Assembly (NCBI GenBank): GCA_041483195.1
Contig: JBGPFC010000030.1
Location: 1 to 50,285, forward strand
Direction of reading: 5' to 3'
From: Candidatus Eiseniibacteriota bacterium
GTDB taxonomy: Bacteria > Eisenbacteria > RBG-16-71-46
Length of the DNA: 50,285 nt
The notes beneath the pieces are model-generated. The model ran no database searches. It was not told the origin of the DNA and saw only the letters and a list, made by a program, of their open reading frames with translations. Below, in pieces: positions 42,808-49,447 of this stretch; within the stretch, counting starts at the first letter, position 1, and each line of letters begins with the position of its first letter. The translations under genes and the position numbers were made by a program.

Positions 42808-42910
42808 CGCGGCGCGCGAAGACGACGGGCGGGGGATCGCGGCGACCGCGGACCCCCGCCCGCGCGCCCCGGCTTGGCAAACGAGCCAAAATCCTCTTTC
42901 ATCTGCCGCC

Positions 42911-43810
42911 ATGACCCCGCTCCACATCGTGCTGCTCAAGCCCATGCTGCCCGAGCCCGATCGGCTCTCCGACATCGGGATCCGCATCGGGCTCACGATC
43001 GCCGTCGCGTTCGTGGTCCAGCGCCTGCTCTTCCTGCTGGTCGGGCGGATCGAGAAATTCCTGATCCGGTCAGGCCATGGCAGCGCGCAGGTGGAGCAGC
43101 GCGCGCACACGCTTTCGCAGATCTTCCGCAGCCTGATCACGGTGGTCGTGATCGCCGGCGCGATCATCCACTCGCTCGCGGTGATGGGCTGGAACGTCGG
43201 GCCGCTGCTGGCCGGCGCCGGCATCCTCGGCGTCGCCCTTGGATTCGGGGCGCAGACGCTGGTGCGCGACGTGATCGCCGGCGTGTTCATTCTCGCCGAA
43301 GACCAGTTCTCGGTCGGCGACCTGATCGAGCTGGACGGCAAGGCCGGAACGGTGGAGGCGCTCACCGTGCGCTGCACGACGCTGCGAGATTTCTACGGCT
43401 ACGTGCACTTCGTTCCGAACGGCGAGATGAAGATCGTCGTGAACCGCAGCCGCGGCTGGAACCGTCTCGCCGTGGACGTGCAGATCGCCCCCGATCAGGA
43501 CATCGACCGCGCGCTCGATGCGTGCCGCCGCGCGGCGGACGCGCTGAACGCCGATCCCGAGTGGAAGCCGCGGCTGCTCGATCCGGTGGAGGTGTGGGGG
43601 GTGGAGTCGCTGGGCGCGCAGGGCGCGCAGGTCCGGCTGGTGGTGCGCTCGCGGCCCGGCGGCGGCGCGGCCGAGGCCTCGCGCGCGCTGCGGCGGCTCG
43701 TGCATCGCGCGCTCGCGGAGGCCGGGGTGCGCACGGCGGTCGCTCCCGAAATCTCGATCACCGCGCTGGGCCCGGCCGAGGCGCCGATCCGCGGCTCGCG
43801 CGCGGGCTAG
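42911..43810 (+). CDS. MscS family mechanosensitive channel
   Basis: GAGILGVALGFGAQTLVRD..G.FIL.EDQFSVGD, VPNG. Confidence 0.93.
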   Translation: MTPLHIVLLKPMLPEPDRLSDIGIRIGLTIAVAFVVQRLLFLLVGRIEKFLIRSGHGSAQVEQRAHTLSQIFRSLITVVVIAGAIIHSLAVMGWNVGPLLAGAGILGVALGFGAQTLVRDVIAGVFILAEDQFSVGDLIELDGKAGTVEALTVRCTTLRDFYGYVHFVPNGEMKIVVNRSRGWNRLAVDVQIAPDQDIDRALDACRRAADALNADPEWKPRLLDPVEVWGVESLGAQGAQVRLVVRSRPGGGAAEASRALRRLVHRALAEAGVRTAVAPEISITALGPAEAPIRGSRAG

Positions 43811-43858
43811 AGGATCCGCCCGCCGGCTTCCCCCGGTCCCGCACTCAAGGAGATCGCA

Positions 43859-45250
43859 TTGCCGCTTCGCATCTACGACACCCTCGCCCGCGAGAAGCGA
43901 ACGTTCGTCCCGGTCGTCCCCGGGCGCGTCGGCATGTACGTCTGCGGGATGACCGTGCAGAACCGGCCTCACGTCGGGCACGTGCGCGCCTCGCTCTCGG
44001 GGGAGATCATGCGCCGCTACCTGGAGCGCCTCGGCTACGAGGTCGCGTACGTCTACAACTTCACGGACGTCGACGACAAGATCATCGAGCGCGCGGCCGC
44101 CGAGGGCGTCCCCTGGCAGCAGGTGAGCGAGCGCAACATCGACGCGTACTTTCGCGCGGCGGACGCATGCAACATCAAGCGCGCGACCGTGTATCCGCGC
44201 GCCACGCAGCACATCGCCGAGATGCACGCGATCATCGCGCGGCTGATCGAGAAGGGACACGCGTACGCGGCAGGCGGCGACGTCTACTTCGACGTCCGCA
44301 GCCGCGCGGACTACGGCAAGCTCTCGGGACGCCGGGTGGACGAGATGCGCGAGGGCTACCGCATCGAGCCGGGGGAGGCGAAGCGGGACCCGCTCGACTT
44401 CGCGCTGTGGAAGGGCACCAAGCCGGGCGAGCCCTCCTGGGAGTCGCCGTGGGGACCGGGCCGGCCGGGCTGGCACATCGAGTGCTCGGCGATGGCGATG
44501 AAGTACCTGGGAGAGACCTTCGACATTCACGGCGGCGGGCAGGACCTCATCTTCCCGCACCACGAGAACGAGATCGCCCAGAGCGAGTCGTTCAGCGGGA
44601 GGCCATTCGCGAACTTCTGGACCGAGAACGGCATGGTCAATCTCGGCGGCGAGAAGATGTCGAAGAGCACGGGCAATCTCTTCTTCACGGACGACATCCT
44701 CGCGAGCGCGGATCCCGAGGTGGTGCGCTTCTACCTGCTCTCGACCCACTACCGCAGCCCGATCGATTTCACGCTCGAGCGTCTCGCGGAGGCCGCGGTC
44801 GCCTATCAGCGCCTGATCGTTCCGCTCGAGCGCGCCGAGGCGTGGACGGCGCAGGAGGGCGGCGCGGTGGGAGGATCGCTGGGCGAAGCGGTGGCCGGGG
44901 CGGAGCGACTGTTCGCCGAGTCCATGGACGACGACTTCAACAGCGCGAAGGCGATCGGTCACCTGTTCGATCTCGCTCGGGAGGTGAACCGCGCGCTCGA
45001 CGAAGGGCTGGGCTCCGAGGCCCGGGCGGCCGCCCGCCATCTGCTCGCCCTCGGCGGGGTGCTGGGTCTGTTCTGGAAGCCGCGGGCCGCCGAGCAGTGG
45101 GACCCCGAGCTGGTGGCGCTCGCAACGGCTCGCGAGGCGGCGCGGAAGGGTCGTGACTGGAAGCGGGCCGATGCGATCCGGGATCAGCTCGCCGAGCGCG
45201 GGGTGACGGTCGAAGACGGACCCGATGGCCCTCGGCTCCGGCGGAAGTAG
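43859..45250 (+). CDS. cysS: Cysteine--tRNA ligase
   Basis: [39 protein letters not shown] start after AAGGAG. Confidence 0.97.
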
Positions 45251-45630: not shown

Positions 45631-45984
45631 ATGCCTCGATTCAATGCGAATCGCTGGTGGGCCTTCATCCTGGCGCTGAGCGTCAGTTTGACGTCCATCG
45701 CCGCGATGTCGCGACATGCGATTGCTGGCGTCCGCATGGGCGAAGGCGGCGGCGGAACAATCACGACGGGTGATCCCGGCTTGCCGCCCCCTCCGGGGGC
45801 GGGCGATCCCGACATTCCTTTGCCTTCGAAGTCTTCGATCCCAAAGGTGTCGGCTCAACGGGGTGCTCAGACCATCGCTTCGGTGCGCGCTGTGGGTGAC
45901 GGCTCCGCGCCGAGCAGCAGCGTCATGATGTGGCGTCTCCAGGCCGTGCTGCAGAGCCTGAGGCTCTGGTTCGTTCGCTTCTAG
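45631..45984 (+). CDS. Small secreted Gly/Pro-rich protein (candidate signalling pre-peptide)
   Basis: AGGAAGG RBS; signal peptide ending AIA; GDPG/GDPD motifs; amphipathic C-terminal helix; 117 aa. Confidence 0.75.
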   Translation: MPRFNANRWWAFILALSVSLTSIAAMSRHAIAGVRMGEGGGGTITTGDPGLPPPPGAGDPDIPLPSKSSIPKVSAQRGAQTIASVRAVGDGSAPSSSVMMWRLQAVLQSLRLWFVRF

Positions 45985-46011
45985 GTTCTGCATGATCGGC
46001 GTAGTAGAAAC

Positions 46012-48438
46012 GTGGACCGGAGTTTCGGCGTGCCGAACTACGACCCGAATCGCATCGCACATCTCGAGGGGCGCCTCGCCGTAGTTCCCGAGGCGGCATT
46101 CGAGACCGCGCTCTCTGAGCTGGAGATGCTGGCGGACCTGTACATGCAGGCCGACAGCTATCTCCCCGCTCTGGAGACCATCGAGCGTCTGCTGTCGCTG
46201 CCCGCCGCGCGCACGCTTTCGTTCACGCGTCGCGCGGCGCTGGAGAGCAAGGCGGTCTCCTGCCGACTCGCGCAGGGGGACTGCCAGGCCGCGCTCGCCC
46301 AGTGCCGCGACCTGCTCCAATCCGAATCCTCGATCGAATCCATTCCGATCCGAGCCCGGTTGCATCTGCTGTGCGCCGATGCGCTCTTCATGCTGAGCCG
46401 GCTGGCCGACAGCCGGCACCACGCCGAGCGCGTGCTCACGATGGCGGACGCGAGCGGCGATCTGGTGCTGTCCGCCGCCGCGCTCAATCATCTCGGCCGC
46501 ATCACGTATCGCGAGGGCGAGCTGCTGCGCGCGCGGGACCTGTACGAGCAGGCGCTGGCGCTCTATCGCAGACTGGGCGACGAGTTCAGCGCGGCACGGG
46601 TGCGGAACAACATCGGACTCATTCAGAAGAATCTCTGCGAGTGGGACTCGGCGATCGCGCACCTGACCTCCGCGCTCGAGATCTTCCGCAAGCTGGGGCG
46701 CCTGCCGGAGACCGGCCCCGCGCTCATGAACCTCGGCATCGTCTACCAGAAGAGCGGCGACTGGGTGCGGGCCGACGAGTGTTACCGCGGCGCCGAGGAG
46801 GTATTCCTTCAAATTTCCGACCACCTGCACCTGGCGCAGGTGGGCATCGGGCGCGGCAACGTGGCGCGCCTGCAGCGCCGCTTCGTCGACGCGGAGACCG
46901 CGCTGTTCGCGGCCCTCGACCGCGCACGCTCCCACGACGCGCAGCGCGAAGAGGTGCTGGCCCTGGAATTTCTTGGCGAGCTCGACGCCGATCGCGGCCG
47001 GCCGGAAAGCGCGCTCGCGCGCTATCACGAGGCGCTGGCGCTGGCGGAGCGGGTCGCGCCCGAGGGCGACCTGGTGGTGGAGCTGGAGCGCCGCCGGGCC
47101 GAGGCGCTGTGCGTGCTGCAGCGGCTCGACGACGCGGATCATGCCTGCGAGCGGGCGCGTCGGCTCGCGCGTCGCACCAACGATCGCCTCGAGAACGCGG
47201 TGAGTCACCGGGTGGCGGGTGAGATCGCATGGGCCAGGGGCCGTCGCGACGAAGCCGTGCAGAGCTGGAAGATCGCATCCTCGCTGCTCATGGACTGCCG
47301 CGAGCGCCTCGAGCTGGGGCGCACGCAGATGCTGCTGGGCCGCTCGAGCGGGGACCCTGCGGAAGCGCGGCGCCATTTCTACCGTGCGATCTCGTTGTTC
47401 GCGGAGCTCTCGACCCCCTACTGGATCGAGCAGGCGGAGTCCGAGCTGCAGCGCCTGATGGGCGCCCCCGGCGATCCCGCCCCGGTGCGCCCCGCGTCGC
47501 TGCTCGGCCGCCGGCACCGCGCGCCGAGCCTCGTTGCCTGCTCCCACGCGATGCGCCTGGTCGAGACCATGGCGCGCCGCGCCGCGAGCACGGAGCTTTC
47601 GGTCCTCATCACCGGCGAGACCGGGACCGGGAAGGAACTCGTCGCGCGCACCATTCACGTGCTTTCGCCGCGGGCGCCGCGACCGTTCCTCGCCGTGAAC
47701 TGCGGCGCGCTCCGCGCCGATCTCGCGCTGTCGCAGCTGTTCGGCCATCGCAAGGGGGCATTCACCGGCGCGCATGCCGAAGGCGTGGGGCTGGTCGAGG
47801 CCGCGCACTGCGGCACCCTGTTCCTCGACGAAGTGGGCGAGCTGCCGCACGACGTGCAGGTCACGATGCTGCGTTTCCTCGAGAGCGGCGAGTATCTTCG
47901 CCTCGGCGAGACGCAGGTGCGCCGCGCCGATGTGCGCGTGATCGCGGCGACCAATCGCGAGCTGAGGAGCGACGACGGCGAGCGGGCGTTCCGGCGCGAC
48001 CTGCTCTATCGCCTGAACGAGATCGAGATCCGGTTGCCGTCCCTGCGCGAGCGCGCCGACGACATCGCGCCGCTGGCGCGTCACTTCCTCGCGTTCTACG
48101 GCGGGCTCGAGGGACCGCAGCTCTCGCCCGACGCGGAGAGCGTCCTGCTCGCGTACGAGTGGCCGGGCAACGTCCGCGAGCTCGAGAACGTGATGAAGCG
48201 CATCGCGGCGCTGCACGCCGGGGACCGCATGCTCTCGGGCGCCGACCTGGTGCCGTTCCTCTCGAACGAGCGCAGCGCGCGTCCCGCGTCGTCCTCGGCG
48301 GAGCCCGACGAGCGGGCCGCGATCCTCGCAGCTTACGCGGTGTCGCACGGCAACAAGAGCCGGCTCGCCGCGCTGCTCGGCGTCAGCCGGAAGACGCTCT
48401 ACGCGCGGCTCAAGCGCTACTCGATCGATCTCCCCTGA
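46012..48438 (+). CDS. TPR-domain sigma54-dependent enhancer-binding protein
   Basis: Long N-terminal TPR array; GETGTGKE, intact GAFTGA, LFLDEVGE, WPGNVRELEN; Fis-type HTH; no receiver domain. Confidence 0.94.
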   Translation: MDRSFGVPNYDPNRIAHLEGRLAVVPEAAFETALSELEMLADLYMQADSYLPALETIERLLSLPAARTLSFTRRAALESKAVSCRLAQGDCQAALAQCRDLLQSESSIESIPIRARLHLLCADALFMLSRLADSRHHAERVLTMADASGDLVLSAAALNHLGRITYREGELLRARDLYEQALALYRRLGDEFSAARVRNNIGLIQKNLCEWDSAIAHLTSALEIFRKLGRLPETGPALMNLGIVYQKSGDWVRADECYRGAEEVFLQISDHLHLAQVGIGRGNVARLQRRFVDAETALFAALDRARSHDAQREEVLALEFLGELDADRGRPESALARYHEALALAERVAPEGDLVVELERRRAEALCVLQRLDDADHACERARRLARRTNDRLENAVSHRVAGEIAWARGRRDEAVQSWKIASSLLMDCRERLELGRTQMLLGRSSGDPAEARRHFYRAISLFAELSTPYWIEQAESELQRLMGAPGDPAPVRPASLLGRRHRAPSLVACSHAMRLVETMARRAASTELSVLITGETGTGKELVARTIHVLSPRAPRPFLAVNCGALRADLALSQLFGHRKGAFTGAHAEGVGLVEAAHCGTLFLDEVGELPHDVQVTMLRFLESGEYLRLGETQVRRADVRVIAATNRELRSDDGERAFRRDLLYRLNEIEIRLPSLRERADDIAPLARHFLAFYGGLEGPQLSPDAESVLLAYEWPGNVRELENVMKRIAALHAGDRMLSGADLVPFLSNERSARPASSSAEPDERAAILAAYAVSHGNKSRLAALLGVSRKTLYARLKRYSIDLP

Positions 48439-48454
48439 GGCGCTGACTTTCTTT

Positions 48455-48496
48455 CGGCGAGGGCGGAAGCGGTTGCTTCCGCCCTCGCCGCATTTT
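48455..48496 (+). terminator. Intrinsic terminator
   Basis: 16-bp perfect stem CGGCGAGGGCGGAAGC-GGTT-GCTTCCGCCCTCGCCG followed by CATTTT. Confidence 0.8.
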
Positions 48497-48521
48497 CAGC
48501 GCTTCGAGCGGCGCACGCGAC

Positions 48522-48632
48522 GGTGACCCCATGTCACCCTGTTACCCGACCGTAACAGGATCCCTATCCCGCTCGCGGGCCTCGAGTAAGCGCGAAGTTC
48601 GACGGCGTGGGGCTGTTAACCTCGCGGTGACA
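48522..48632. promoter_or_regulatory. Putative upstream activator (enhancer) sites
   Basis: GGTGAC-N5-GTCACC (48522-48538), CCTGTTAC-N6-GTAACAGG (48538-48559) and TGTTA-N9-TGACA (48614-48632). Confidence 0.55.
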
Positions 48633-48749
48633 CTTCTGCCTCCGAGTCGAATCCGGCTCACTCCCCCCGATGATCGAGGCGCGTGAAAGGCATTGTGCCG
48701 CAATGCATCGGCGGCCATTCGACCCGCGCACCGCGAGACGGGGTCACGC

Positions 48750-48765
48750 TGGCATGCAGGGTGCA
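48750..48765 (+). promoter_or_regulatory. Sigma54 (-24/-12) promoter
   Basis: TGGCATGCAGGGTGCA: GG at 48751-52, 10-nt spacer, GC at 48763-64; close to the TGGCACG-N4-TTGC consensus. Confidence 0.7.
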
Positions 48766-48775
48766 ATGGGAATGT

Positions 48776-49230
48776 CACGGATACGGGTACAGGCCGAAAG
48801 GCCTGAGTACAGCAGTTCGGAGCGGAGTCTCCTCAAGGGGAGAGGAACTCAAGACCGCAGGGTGGCCCGTGTGCAGTTCAGCACCTCCATCCGCACATGC
48901 CGGTCGCCCTCGGTCGGCTCCGAAGCAAGTGGTTGAACACGAAGCGAAGTCGGGCGGGAAGCCGCCCGGGGGCTCGTACCCTGAGGTTAGCCGCTGAAAC
49001 GAATTCAGCGGCCCAGCTCGAAAGGGGTGAGAGCAACTCAAGTCGGATCAGAGCAGTCTGGTGAGAAGTGAGTAGTGGTTCGCAGATCGACACAAAAAAA
49101 CCTAATACGCCCGGTCAACGAAGCCGGGAGAGCAGTGGGGTTCATCCCGGTCACTCCCTGTTCTCTCGGGAAGAGGCAGCCAGAGGTTACGGGAAGGAGA
49201 GTCCTTCCGTACCACTCTAGGCTGCCTTTT
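48776..49230 (+). ncRNA. Putative large structured ncRNA (~450 nt), family not recognised
   Basis: Starts at the predicted sigma54 TSS; at least 8 helices including a GAAA tetraloop and nested long-range pairings; ends in a stem plus TTTT; no convincing CDS. Confidence 0.65.
49174..49230 (+). terminator. Terminal stem/terminator of the putative ncRNA
   Basis: AGGCAGCC/GGCTGCCT enclosing TACGGGAAGGA/TCCTTCCGTA, followed by a T-run. Confidence 0.6.
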
Positions 49231-49316
49231 CGATTGTGGTCGCGAGGGCGCGCGCCGGCGCGCCGGACATTCCAGGCCGCCGGGCGCGGGGCGCATGGGG
49301 CGCGGGCCCGTCCTGC

Positions 49317-49345
49317 TTGACAGCCCATCGGCGGCTGACTATTTT
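49317..49345 (+). promoter_or_regulatory. Sigma70 promoter of the tRNA cluster
   Basis: TTGACA-N17-TATTTT. Confidence 0.65.
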
Positions 49346-49374
49346 GGCCTTGTTCCCCCGCGAGATACTGCTCC

Positions 49375-49447
49375 GCTGGCGTAGCTCAATTGGTAGAGCA
49401 TCTCATTTGTAATGAGGTGGTTGGGGGTTCGAGTCCCTTCGCCAGCT
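49375..49447 (+). tRNA. tRNA-Thr(TGT)
   Basis: Cloverleaf; anticodon loop TTTGTAA; TTCGAGT T-loop; CCA not encoded. Confidence 0.95.

Follow-up and report, generated by a model that had tools for sequence, protein, structure and literature searches.

The window analyzed in this study, a 50,285-nucleotide (nt) stretch of DNA from a Candidatus Eiseniibacteriota bacterium (assembly GCA_041483195.1, contig JBGPFC010000030.1), carries on its + strand, at positions 48776 to 49232, a genuine and self-contained non-coding RNA gene of approximately 455 nt that represents a new RNA family. The gene was delimited by its fold, its relatives in other genomes, and the covariation among them, and it very probably forms an independent transcription unit driven by a sigma-54 promoter. 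The genetic logic of the locus, a regulatory RNA coupled to sigma-54 and an activator, is of a known kind; the size of the RNA, its modular growth, and its invariant elements are unusual. A first-pass annotation made from the letters alone had described an unrecognized structured non-coding RNA on the + strand at this place, and that description holds: no Rfam family matches it, its homologues covary, and no protein-coding signal was found.

Identity, distribution, and fold of the RNA

A search of the window against Rfam 15 at gathering score returned only four tRNAs, and no family matches the RNA. When hits up to an E value of 10 were considered over 48400-49400, those overlapping the RNA scored 13 to 18.4 bits against cutoffs of 50 to 80, all on the minus strand, and chance subthreshold hits at 48438-48500 stem from a hairpin at 48455-48490. 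Aragorn, run for tRNA genes only (-t), called tRNAs only. Canonical copies of RNase P RNA (contig C9, 263 bits), transfer-messenger RNA (tmRNA; contig C11, 175 bits), 6S RNA (contig C5, 67.5 bits), and signal recognition particle (SRP) RNA (contig C44, 81.4 bits) are located on other contigs of the genome, and a divergent housekeeping RNA was therefore rejected, in keeping with the earlier remark that the sequence shows no hallmarks of RNase P RNA, tmRNA, or SRP RNA. A tmRNA-like tag frame in the invariant stretch described below was also considered and rejected, as inspection by eye revealed no stop-bounded frame. A literature search, which did not reach subscription journals and supplements, found no report of a non-coding RNA in Eisenbacteria. 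These bacteria are widespread in soils and sediments; to our knowledge, none has been cultured and nothing is in print on their RNA regulators.

The RNA was found in two families of one order of Eisenbacteria. BLAST searches recovered it from 32 of 41 related genomes, the window's own included: 22 of 24 genomes of the family that we label f1, 9 of 10 of family f3, 0 of 3 of family f2, and 0 of 3 from three further families. An exact-pattern scan with one genome per species yielded 74 stretches, nearly all of them titled as Candidatus Eisenbacteria metagenome-assembled genomes. A covariance model built from 77 sequences over 112 positions of the 3' core hit 57 of 151 genomes of the phylum, namely 50 of 59 in f1, 6 of 6 in f3, and the window's own genome, and none of the 85 genomes of 15 other families. 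These tallies include one unpublished genome (G026), of which the alignments are independent. Genomes carry a single copy except for G015, where the 3' half of the RNA was located at both C3:1227077-1227257 and C6:891242-891414, the second adjoining a split match to the tetratricopeptide repeat (TPR) region of the activator described below. The 78 distinct RNA sequences comprise 67 long forms of 363 to 546 nt, 10 short forms of 300 to 331 nt, and 1 sequence cut by a contig end. The short forms belong to family f3 and one f1 genome and have a small hairpin in place of the 5' domain.

Relative to the three closest aligned relatives, 9 of 10, 14 of 17, and 14 of 17 indels are not multiples of three. 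For two open reading frames (ORFs) that overlap the 5' domain, conservation extends no further than the nearest relative. Three others over the 3' core, two in + frames and one in a - frame, each match 64 to 65 of 66 relatives; the three frames are conserved at once because the conservation is at the nucleotide level. No coding signal emerged from the indels, the frame patterns, or the changes in the stem at 49124-49169, which are compensatory.

The + strand (48776-49235) folds with a minimum free energy (MFE) of -223.1 kcal/mol, compared with a mean of -171.2 (standard deviation, 5.9) for 100 shuffled sequences (z = -8.77), none of which was as stable. The minus strand folds more weakly (z = -3.88), which agrees with the strand chosen originally. 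Nearly all of the pairings that had been read by eye are present in the MFE fold, including CAGGCC-GAAA-GGCCTG (48790-805), 48816-23/48917-24, the hairpin at 48825-50, the arm at 48853-48915, CGGGCGG-GAAG-CCGCCCG, the hairpin at 48990-49012, the stem at 49124-49169, and the terminal stem. A proposed closing helix, GGGTAC (48785-90)/GTACCC (48976-81), is not in the MFE fold, which instead joins the 5' end to the CCCGGUC region and GUACCC to GGGGUG (49024-29). The variants among relatives, judged by eye, fit this helix as well as the alternative, and the closing helix is ambiguous.

Covariation was assessed on an RNAalifold consensus structure (74 pairs in 9 helices) of a MAFFT alignment of the 67 long forms (alignment A1). 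In these relatives, 88.4% of the cells are paired, versus 40.0 to 47.8% in slid controls; 43 pairs are changed on both sides (22 to 36 in the controls), as are 289 cells (87 to 144 in the controls). None of 500 shuffles reached any of the observed measures. The covariation supports the fold of the RNA and confirms the stem at 49124-49169, the long arm, and the terminal stem, all three of which had been drawn from a single sequence. Because the MAFFT alignment handles the variable hairpins poorly, the pair counts there are underestimates. Helix 1, which joins the 5' end to CCCGGUCAACG (49110-49121), is 96.5% paired with 0 pairs changed on both sides; helix 7, which joins GCUCGUACCC to GGGUGAGAGC, is 80.6% paired with 1 pair changed on both sides, and 2 of its 8 pairs are unpaired in 27 to 28 of the 67 sequences. 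These long-range helices are neither proved nor disproved by covariation because the blocks that they join hardly vary. The top mutual-information pairs fall in the hairpin at 49124-49169. A candidate tertiary or pseudoknot pair, G/A at 49028 with C/U at 49181, is 99% Watson-Crick; it tracks two large clades and has only three stackable neighbors by eye, and it was rejected and its signal treated as phylogenetic.

The architecture is that of a core of approximately 300 nt with a variable 5' domain of approximately 180 nt inserted. The 5'-terminal block CGGAUACGGG (48778-48787) is nearly invariant and could pair with either CCCGGUC (49110-16) or CUCGUA (48972-77). In A1, conservation of this block and of CGGAUACGG, also from the 5' end, reaches at least 90%. 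The variable domain follows (48790-48969); the short forms (family f3 and locus L011) do not have it. It is folded into a GAAA-capped hairpin, a GGGGA-loop hairpin (48825-50), the long arm (48853-48915), and a GAAG-capped hairpin (48951-68). Changes on both sides were recorded in 4 of 4, 9 of 9 (main helix), and 3 of 3 pairs of the long-arm helices and in 6 of 6 pairs of the GAAG-capped hairpin (helices 3 to 6). The apical loop of the long arm, GCACCUCCAUC (48881-48891), is unpaired in the fold, and its segments GCACCTCC and GCACCUCC (48881-88) are at least 90% conserved. It contains CACCUCC, the anti-Shine-Dalgarno heptamer of 16S rRNA; the comparison is with the general consensus and not with the 16S rRNA of this host, because neither the 16S gene nor an rRNA operon is in this assembly. 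The junction block GGGGGCUCGUACCC (48968-48981), with T201 and G203 invariant and their neighbors, like GGGCUCGUACCC, at least 90% conserved in A1, pairs with the block at 49024-33 in helix 7. Loci L007 and L072 have a second GGGGCUCGUACCC junction block inside an enlarged insert (A1 columns 380-460), which suggests that the 5' domain grew by internal duplication.

Downstream of the variable domain, the conserved block GAAAGGGGUGAGAG (49020-49033; GGAGGUGA in family f3) is retained in the short forms. The GGG of its GGGGUGA is at least 90% conserved, and both GGGGUGA and the f3 variant resemble the consensus Shine-Dalgarno sequence. The block GUGAGUAGUGGUUCGCAG (49068-49085) is also conserved in the A1 consensus. 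Next comes an A-rich tract joined to the 17-mer ACGCCCGGUCAACGAAG (49107-49123), and this whole segment (49090-49123) is predicted to be single stranded except where it may pair with the 5' end. The 17-mer is invariant in alignments A1 and A2. Together with the loop CCCGGU (49146-51) it is intact in all 30 loci found by BLAST, an observation independent of the search pattern; the 74 loci of the pattern scan were selected with the 17-mer pattern and add nothing on its invariance. The covarying hairpin at 49124-49169 (helix 8) has 18 pairs, of which 11 are changed on both sides, and is 95% paired. Its 13-nt loop, UUCAUCCCGGUCA (49141-53), holds a second CCCGGUC, and the CCCGGT of this loop is invariant in A1 and A2. 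The motif CCCGGUCA occurs twice, at 49110-17 and 49146-53, approximately 36 nt apart. The RNA closes with a bulged hairpin and a U-tract (49170-49235; helix 9, with 14 pairs, 94.3% paired, 9 changed), the base of the stem being formed by GAAGAGGCAGCC/GGCUGCCUUUUC at 49170-49231. GGCUGCCUUUUC and GGCTGCCTTTTC of this block are at least 90% conserved. We read the hairpin and U-tract as a putative intrinsic terminator, whose U-tract would set the 3' end of the RNA at approximately 49230-49235.

Promoter, activator gene, and RNA libraries

A sigma-54 -24/-12 promoter, TGGCATGcagggTGCA, is located on the + strand at 48750-48765, with GG at 48751-52, GC at 48763-64, and canonical spacing (TGGCAC-N5-TTGCW-like). 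Its predicted start, approximately 48776, coincides with the annotated start of the RNA. The RNA on the + strand from 48776 stands as first annotated; the promoter, the activator gene, and the enhancer-like sites described here had been missed. The pattern TGGCAY-N6-TGCW has two matches in the window versus 0.31 expected. The second match, TGGCACATCGAGTGCT at 44471-44486 (+), lies inside a 760-codon ORF (42874-45156) and is probably due to chance. Of 104 loci (78 distinct RNA sequences), 102 have TGG[CT]A-N6-8-TGC at a constant distance on the upstream side of the core; in the two exceptions, probably one genome found twice given their identical contig size, CGGCAC replaces TGGCAC. The genome encodes rpoN. 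A crude genome scan with TGGCAY-N6-TGCH located 38 sites, among which only the promoter of the RNA has palindromes 60 to 320 nt upstream.

The gene directly upstream of the RNA (46012-48438, + strand) encodes an 808-amino-acid (aa) sigma-54 activator (bacterial enhancer-binding protein) with an N-terminal TPR region, an AAA+ sigma-54 interaction domain, and a Fis-type helix-turn-helix (Pfam Sigma54_activat, 5.1e-60; TPR_12, 5.6e-30; AAA_lid_14; HTH_8). Each of the 30 loci with 1.5-kb flanks has an orthologue (53 to 84% identity) upstream in the same orientation. Clear orthologues of the TPR part (E <= 1e-83) were found only in families f1 and f3, the two that have the RNA; in other families, the activator homologues share approximately 35% identity. 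A G+C-rich hairpin (48455-48490, +) follows the gene and, by sequence reading, is probably its terminator.

Enhancer-like palindromes are located between the gene and the promoter. Two of them, GGTGAC-N5-GTCACC and CTGTTAC-N6-GTAACAG, are adjacent (48522-48558), approximately 210 to 227 bp upstream of the -24 element. A third and imperfect site, TGTTAACC-N4-GGTGACA (48614-48632), is approximately 137 bp upstream; it does not fit the regular expression used, and its position fits a site conserved at -137. Sites of the form GTNAC-N3-9-GTNAC (type GTYACC-N-GGTRAC) recur at approximately -210 and -137 in most of 29 upstream regions, where the commonest shared 7-mers are GGTAACA (23 of 29) and GGTGACA (22 of 29). 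Collectively, these features suggest that the RNA is likely the output of the adjacent activator.

Families that do not have the 455-nt RNA also contain distant activator homologues (approximately 35% identity), and five such loci were viewed by eye. In three of them, L130:2529-2680 (G039, family f5), L127:2819-2975, and L126:2687-2840 (both family f12), the gene is followed by a sigma-54-like promoter and then by a unit of approximately 135 to 150 nt ending in a hairpin and U-tract. Blocks such as GGAACGAGGTCA are common to L126 and L127. The presence of a sigma-54 unit behind these distant activators suggests that the pairing of activator and sigma-54 RNA may predate the long RNA.

Metatranscriptomes offer a weak indication that the RNA is transcribed. 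Six runs hold a small share of the sampled words of the stretch, and contigs from four of these runs (four studies) cover 49078-49235 with the sequence of relatives, the summed word depth reaching 592 and 227 in two of the runs. Strong contig coverage is limited to 49057-49245, which is the conserved core of the relatives, and its lack over 48700-48860 is uninformative. The 3' core of relatives is thus present in RNA libraries; the contigs indicate neither ends nor strand, and DNA carry-over is possible.

Mode of action and competing explanations

The layout of the locus, in which an activator gene, enhancer-like sites, and a sigma-54 promoter precede a terminated RNA, suggests to us an RNA that acts in trans as the dedicated output of the TPR activator, and a regulated role in trans is therefore the leading reading. 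The protein-sponge, scaffold, or regulatory role that the first-pass annotation offered tentatively is still tentative. Feedback on the activator, in which G-rich loops would pair with a C-run at the start of its mRNA, was considered and rejected, as no C-run is seen at 45980-46040. As the best explanation as a whole, we tentatively favor a dedicated regulatory RNA of the activator that base-pairs with target mRNAs; the preference for base pairing over protein binding as the mode of action is, if anything, a shade more tentative. The activator would sense a signal through its TPR region, bind the palindromes, and open the sigma-54 promoter, and the RNA would be its dedicated and possibly only direct output, acting in trans. 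The exposed invariant copies of CCCGGUCA (49110-17 and 49146-53) would serve as seeds, joined in the long form by the anti-Shine-Dalgarno-like loop CACCUCC, and their pairing with target mRNAs would block translation without Hfq. The core of approximately 300 nt (5' hairpin, GGGGUGA block, A-rich tract, covarying hairpin, and terminator) would carry the basic function, with the variable 5' domain of approximately 180 nt as an accessory. Base pairing is favored by the exposed invariant stretches, the anti-Shine-Dalgarno-like loop, and the presence of a motif in two copies, a feature of several small RNAs that carry seeds. A search for Hfq in the genome, which is 96.8% complete, found none.

Several observations weigh against this explanation. 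An antisense search of the genome with the reverse complements of two invariant pieces of 12 to 14 nt returned the locus itself and one 12-mer (contig C17), which is at chance level; no target was found, and no comparative target search was run. A complete invariance of 17 to 20 nt across the order fits a protein or ribosomal partner equally well, and the size, multi-helix junctions, and GNRA-type loops would be more usual in RNAs that bind proteins or act as scaffolds than in base-pairing small RNAs. The invariant stretch may, according to the fold and to helix 1 of the consensus, be partly paired to the 5' end, which would hide the seed. The anti-Shine-Dalgarno-like loop cannot be the core function because the short forms do not have it. 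The ends of the transcript are predicted from sequence, and binding of the activator to the putative enhancer palindromes is likewise our inference. Finally, a simple terminator scan did not call the 3' hairpin, because its stem is bulged and its loop region long, and the U-tract is only UUUU-CGAUU.

A protein-binding RNA, either a sponge that titrates an RNA-binding regulator or the scaffold of a ribonucleoprotein, is a possible though somewhat doubtful alternative; in one variant, the two CCCGGUCA copies would be the sites for a dimeric protein. Models for a sponge are CrcZ with Hfq/Crc, CsrB with CsrA, and 6S RNA with RNA polymerase, and a model for a scaffold is OLE. The large and complex RNA, with its covarying helices and invariant junctions and loops, would suit such a role, as would a motif displayed twice in apparently unpaired contexts, an invariance of 17 to 20 nt that exceeds what most mRNA seeds need, the failure of the antisense search to find a target, and a gene layout that is the same as that of cbrB-crcZ. 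However, no candidate partner is apparent: no conserved neighbor apart from the activator offers one, and the next gene in 16 loci encodes a c-type cytochrome. Classical sponges carry many motif copies rather than two, and the missing Hfq argues against this role as well. The several AANAANAA A-rich motifs that mark an RNA of the CrcZ type together with Hfq are represented here by one A-rich tract (49092-49106).

A modulator of the translation apparatus, which holds 30S subunits or competes with mRNAs when the activator is on, is improbable. As a conditional ribosome regulator rather than a conventional small RNA, it would, when the activator fires, capture 30S subunits or reprogram the choice of start sites by imitating a Shine-Dalgarno sequence and, in its long form, also the 3' end of 16S rRNA, and its two CCCGGUCA elements would be docking sites for a partner from the ribosome or among the translation factors; we consider this version just as improbable. 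The Shine-Dalgarno-like GGGGUGA (GGAGGUGA in f3) and the CACCUCC loop are both conserved, and in 25 of 30 loci the tRNA cluster follows the RNA in the same orientation. However, that gene order may be inherited synteny, the cytochrome c gene intervenes in 16 loci, and a separate sigma-70 promoter precedes the tRNA operon. It may simply be that the two motifs pair with one another or with neighboring blocks (helix 7), and the anti-Shine-Dalgarno-like loop, compared here with the consensus 16S 3' end, is missing in the short forms.

An antagonist of CsrA resembling CsrB or RsmZ is more unlikely still. The genome encodes CsrA (91 bits), while FliW, the usual protein antagonist of CsrA outside the gammaproteobacteria, was, like Hfq, not found, and the RNA contains the conserved GGA elements CGGAUAC (5' end), GGGGA in the loop at 48835-41, and CGGGAAG (49167-73). 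However, these are only about three conserved GGA sites by eye, GGA is by our estimate not clearly above the expectation from base composition, and the invariant stretches are not GGA based. The many loop GGA motifs of a CsrB/RsmZ sponge were not seen, and Rfam returned no CsrB/Rsm hit. CsrA is present in 132 of 151 genomes of the phylum, including the families without the RNA (f2, 3 of 3; f10, 30 of 32; f13, 10 of 10; f15, 12 of 12), and the distributions of CsrA and the RNA are therefore not linked. The least credible alternative is that the RNA encodes a small protein or serves as a leader acting in cis on a downstream gene: ORFs of 50 to 104 codons overlap the region and the 3' ORFs match 64 to 65 of 66 relatives in translated searches, but these matches span three frames and both strands at once, most indels are not multiples of three, the substitutions at 49124-49169 are compensatory, the unit ends in a conserved hairpin and U-tract, and the next genes vary by locus between tRNAs and the cytochrome c gene.

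Comparison with known systems and genomic neighborhood

The placement of an activator gene beside a sigma-54-dependent RNA is known from cbrB-crcZ, nla19-pxr, luxO-qrr1, and glrR-glmY. CrcZ, encoded downstream of cbrB in Pseudomonas, likewise sits directly behind a sigma-54 activator gene, forms an independent unit with a -24/-12 promoter of its own, measures approximately 400 nt, and has an A-rich single-stranded element. The two RNAs differ in that CrcZ has several CA-rich Hfq-binding motifs, whereas the Eisenbacteria RNA has one A-rich tract in a genome where Hfq was not found, and in that the Eisenbacteria RNA has a large covarying multi-domain fold. Rfam revealed no similarity between them, and the sequences were not compared directly. 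The activators differ as well, CbrB having a receiver domain and the Eisenbacteria protein a TPR sensor region. Pxr of Myxococcus, located next to nla19, shares the order of an activator gene and then a regulatory RNA that ends in stem-loops, and it also comes from a G+C-rich soil lineage of non-proteobacterial type. However, Pxr is approximately 100 nt long with three stem-loops, compared with 300 to 546 nt for the Eisenbacteria RNA, and there is no Rfam match. In the Qrr/LuxO and GlmY/GlrR systems, the small-RNA gene is the main or only direct target of the sigma-54 activator, as proposed here, and long stretches of the RNA are absolutely conserved, as they are here; in contrast, Qrr and GlmY are linked to Hfq or RapZ, measure 100 to 200 nt, and are gammaproteobacterial.

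The large structured RNAs OLE, ROOL, GOLLD, HEARO, and raiA, all of which are in Rfam, resemble the Eisenbacteria RNA in size class, multi-helix architecture, and GNRA-type loops, as well as in their narrow phylogenetic range and invariant junction nucleotides. None of them matches it, and we know of none with a link to a sigma-54 promoter and a neighboring activator. Among bacterial non-coding RNAs not assigned to any family, this is one of the larger, and it is modular, with a conserved core and an inserted domain. The shorter RNAs of approximately 135 to 300 nt behind related activators (in f3 and, by eye, in three of five loci elsewhere) show how such an RNA can grow. The locus holds every part of a switch, from sensor-activator through enhancer sites and sigma-54 promoter to RNA output, which can be tested as a whole and could be rebuilt in a laboratory host. 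If the partner is a protein or the ribosome, the RNA would define a new class of regulatory ribonucleoprotein.

The upstream genes encode an M42 peptidase, a D-Ala-D-Ala ligase, IspDF, and a 760-aa protein of unknown function, and they give no functional hint. The last of these ORFs (42874-45156, +), located between the peptidase and activator genes, matched no Pfam family at E <= 1e-8. Downstream, a sigma-70-type promoter (49317-49345, +; TTGACA-17-TATTTT, 10 of 12 matches) serves the tRNA-Thr/Tyr/Gly/Thr-tuf cluster, which is a transcription unit separate from the RNA. The window's genus does not have the additional gene that occupies the gap between the RNA and the tRNAs in 16 loci (L005, L007, L008, L012-L016, L018, L019, L021, and L024-L028). 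In most of these loci, a gene of approximately 155 to 195 codons lies between the RNA terminator and tRNA-Thr. Its product has a signal- or lipoprotein-like N terminus, a CxxCH motif (by eye), and GKGxMPAW, and it looks like a small c-type cytochrome.

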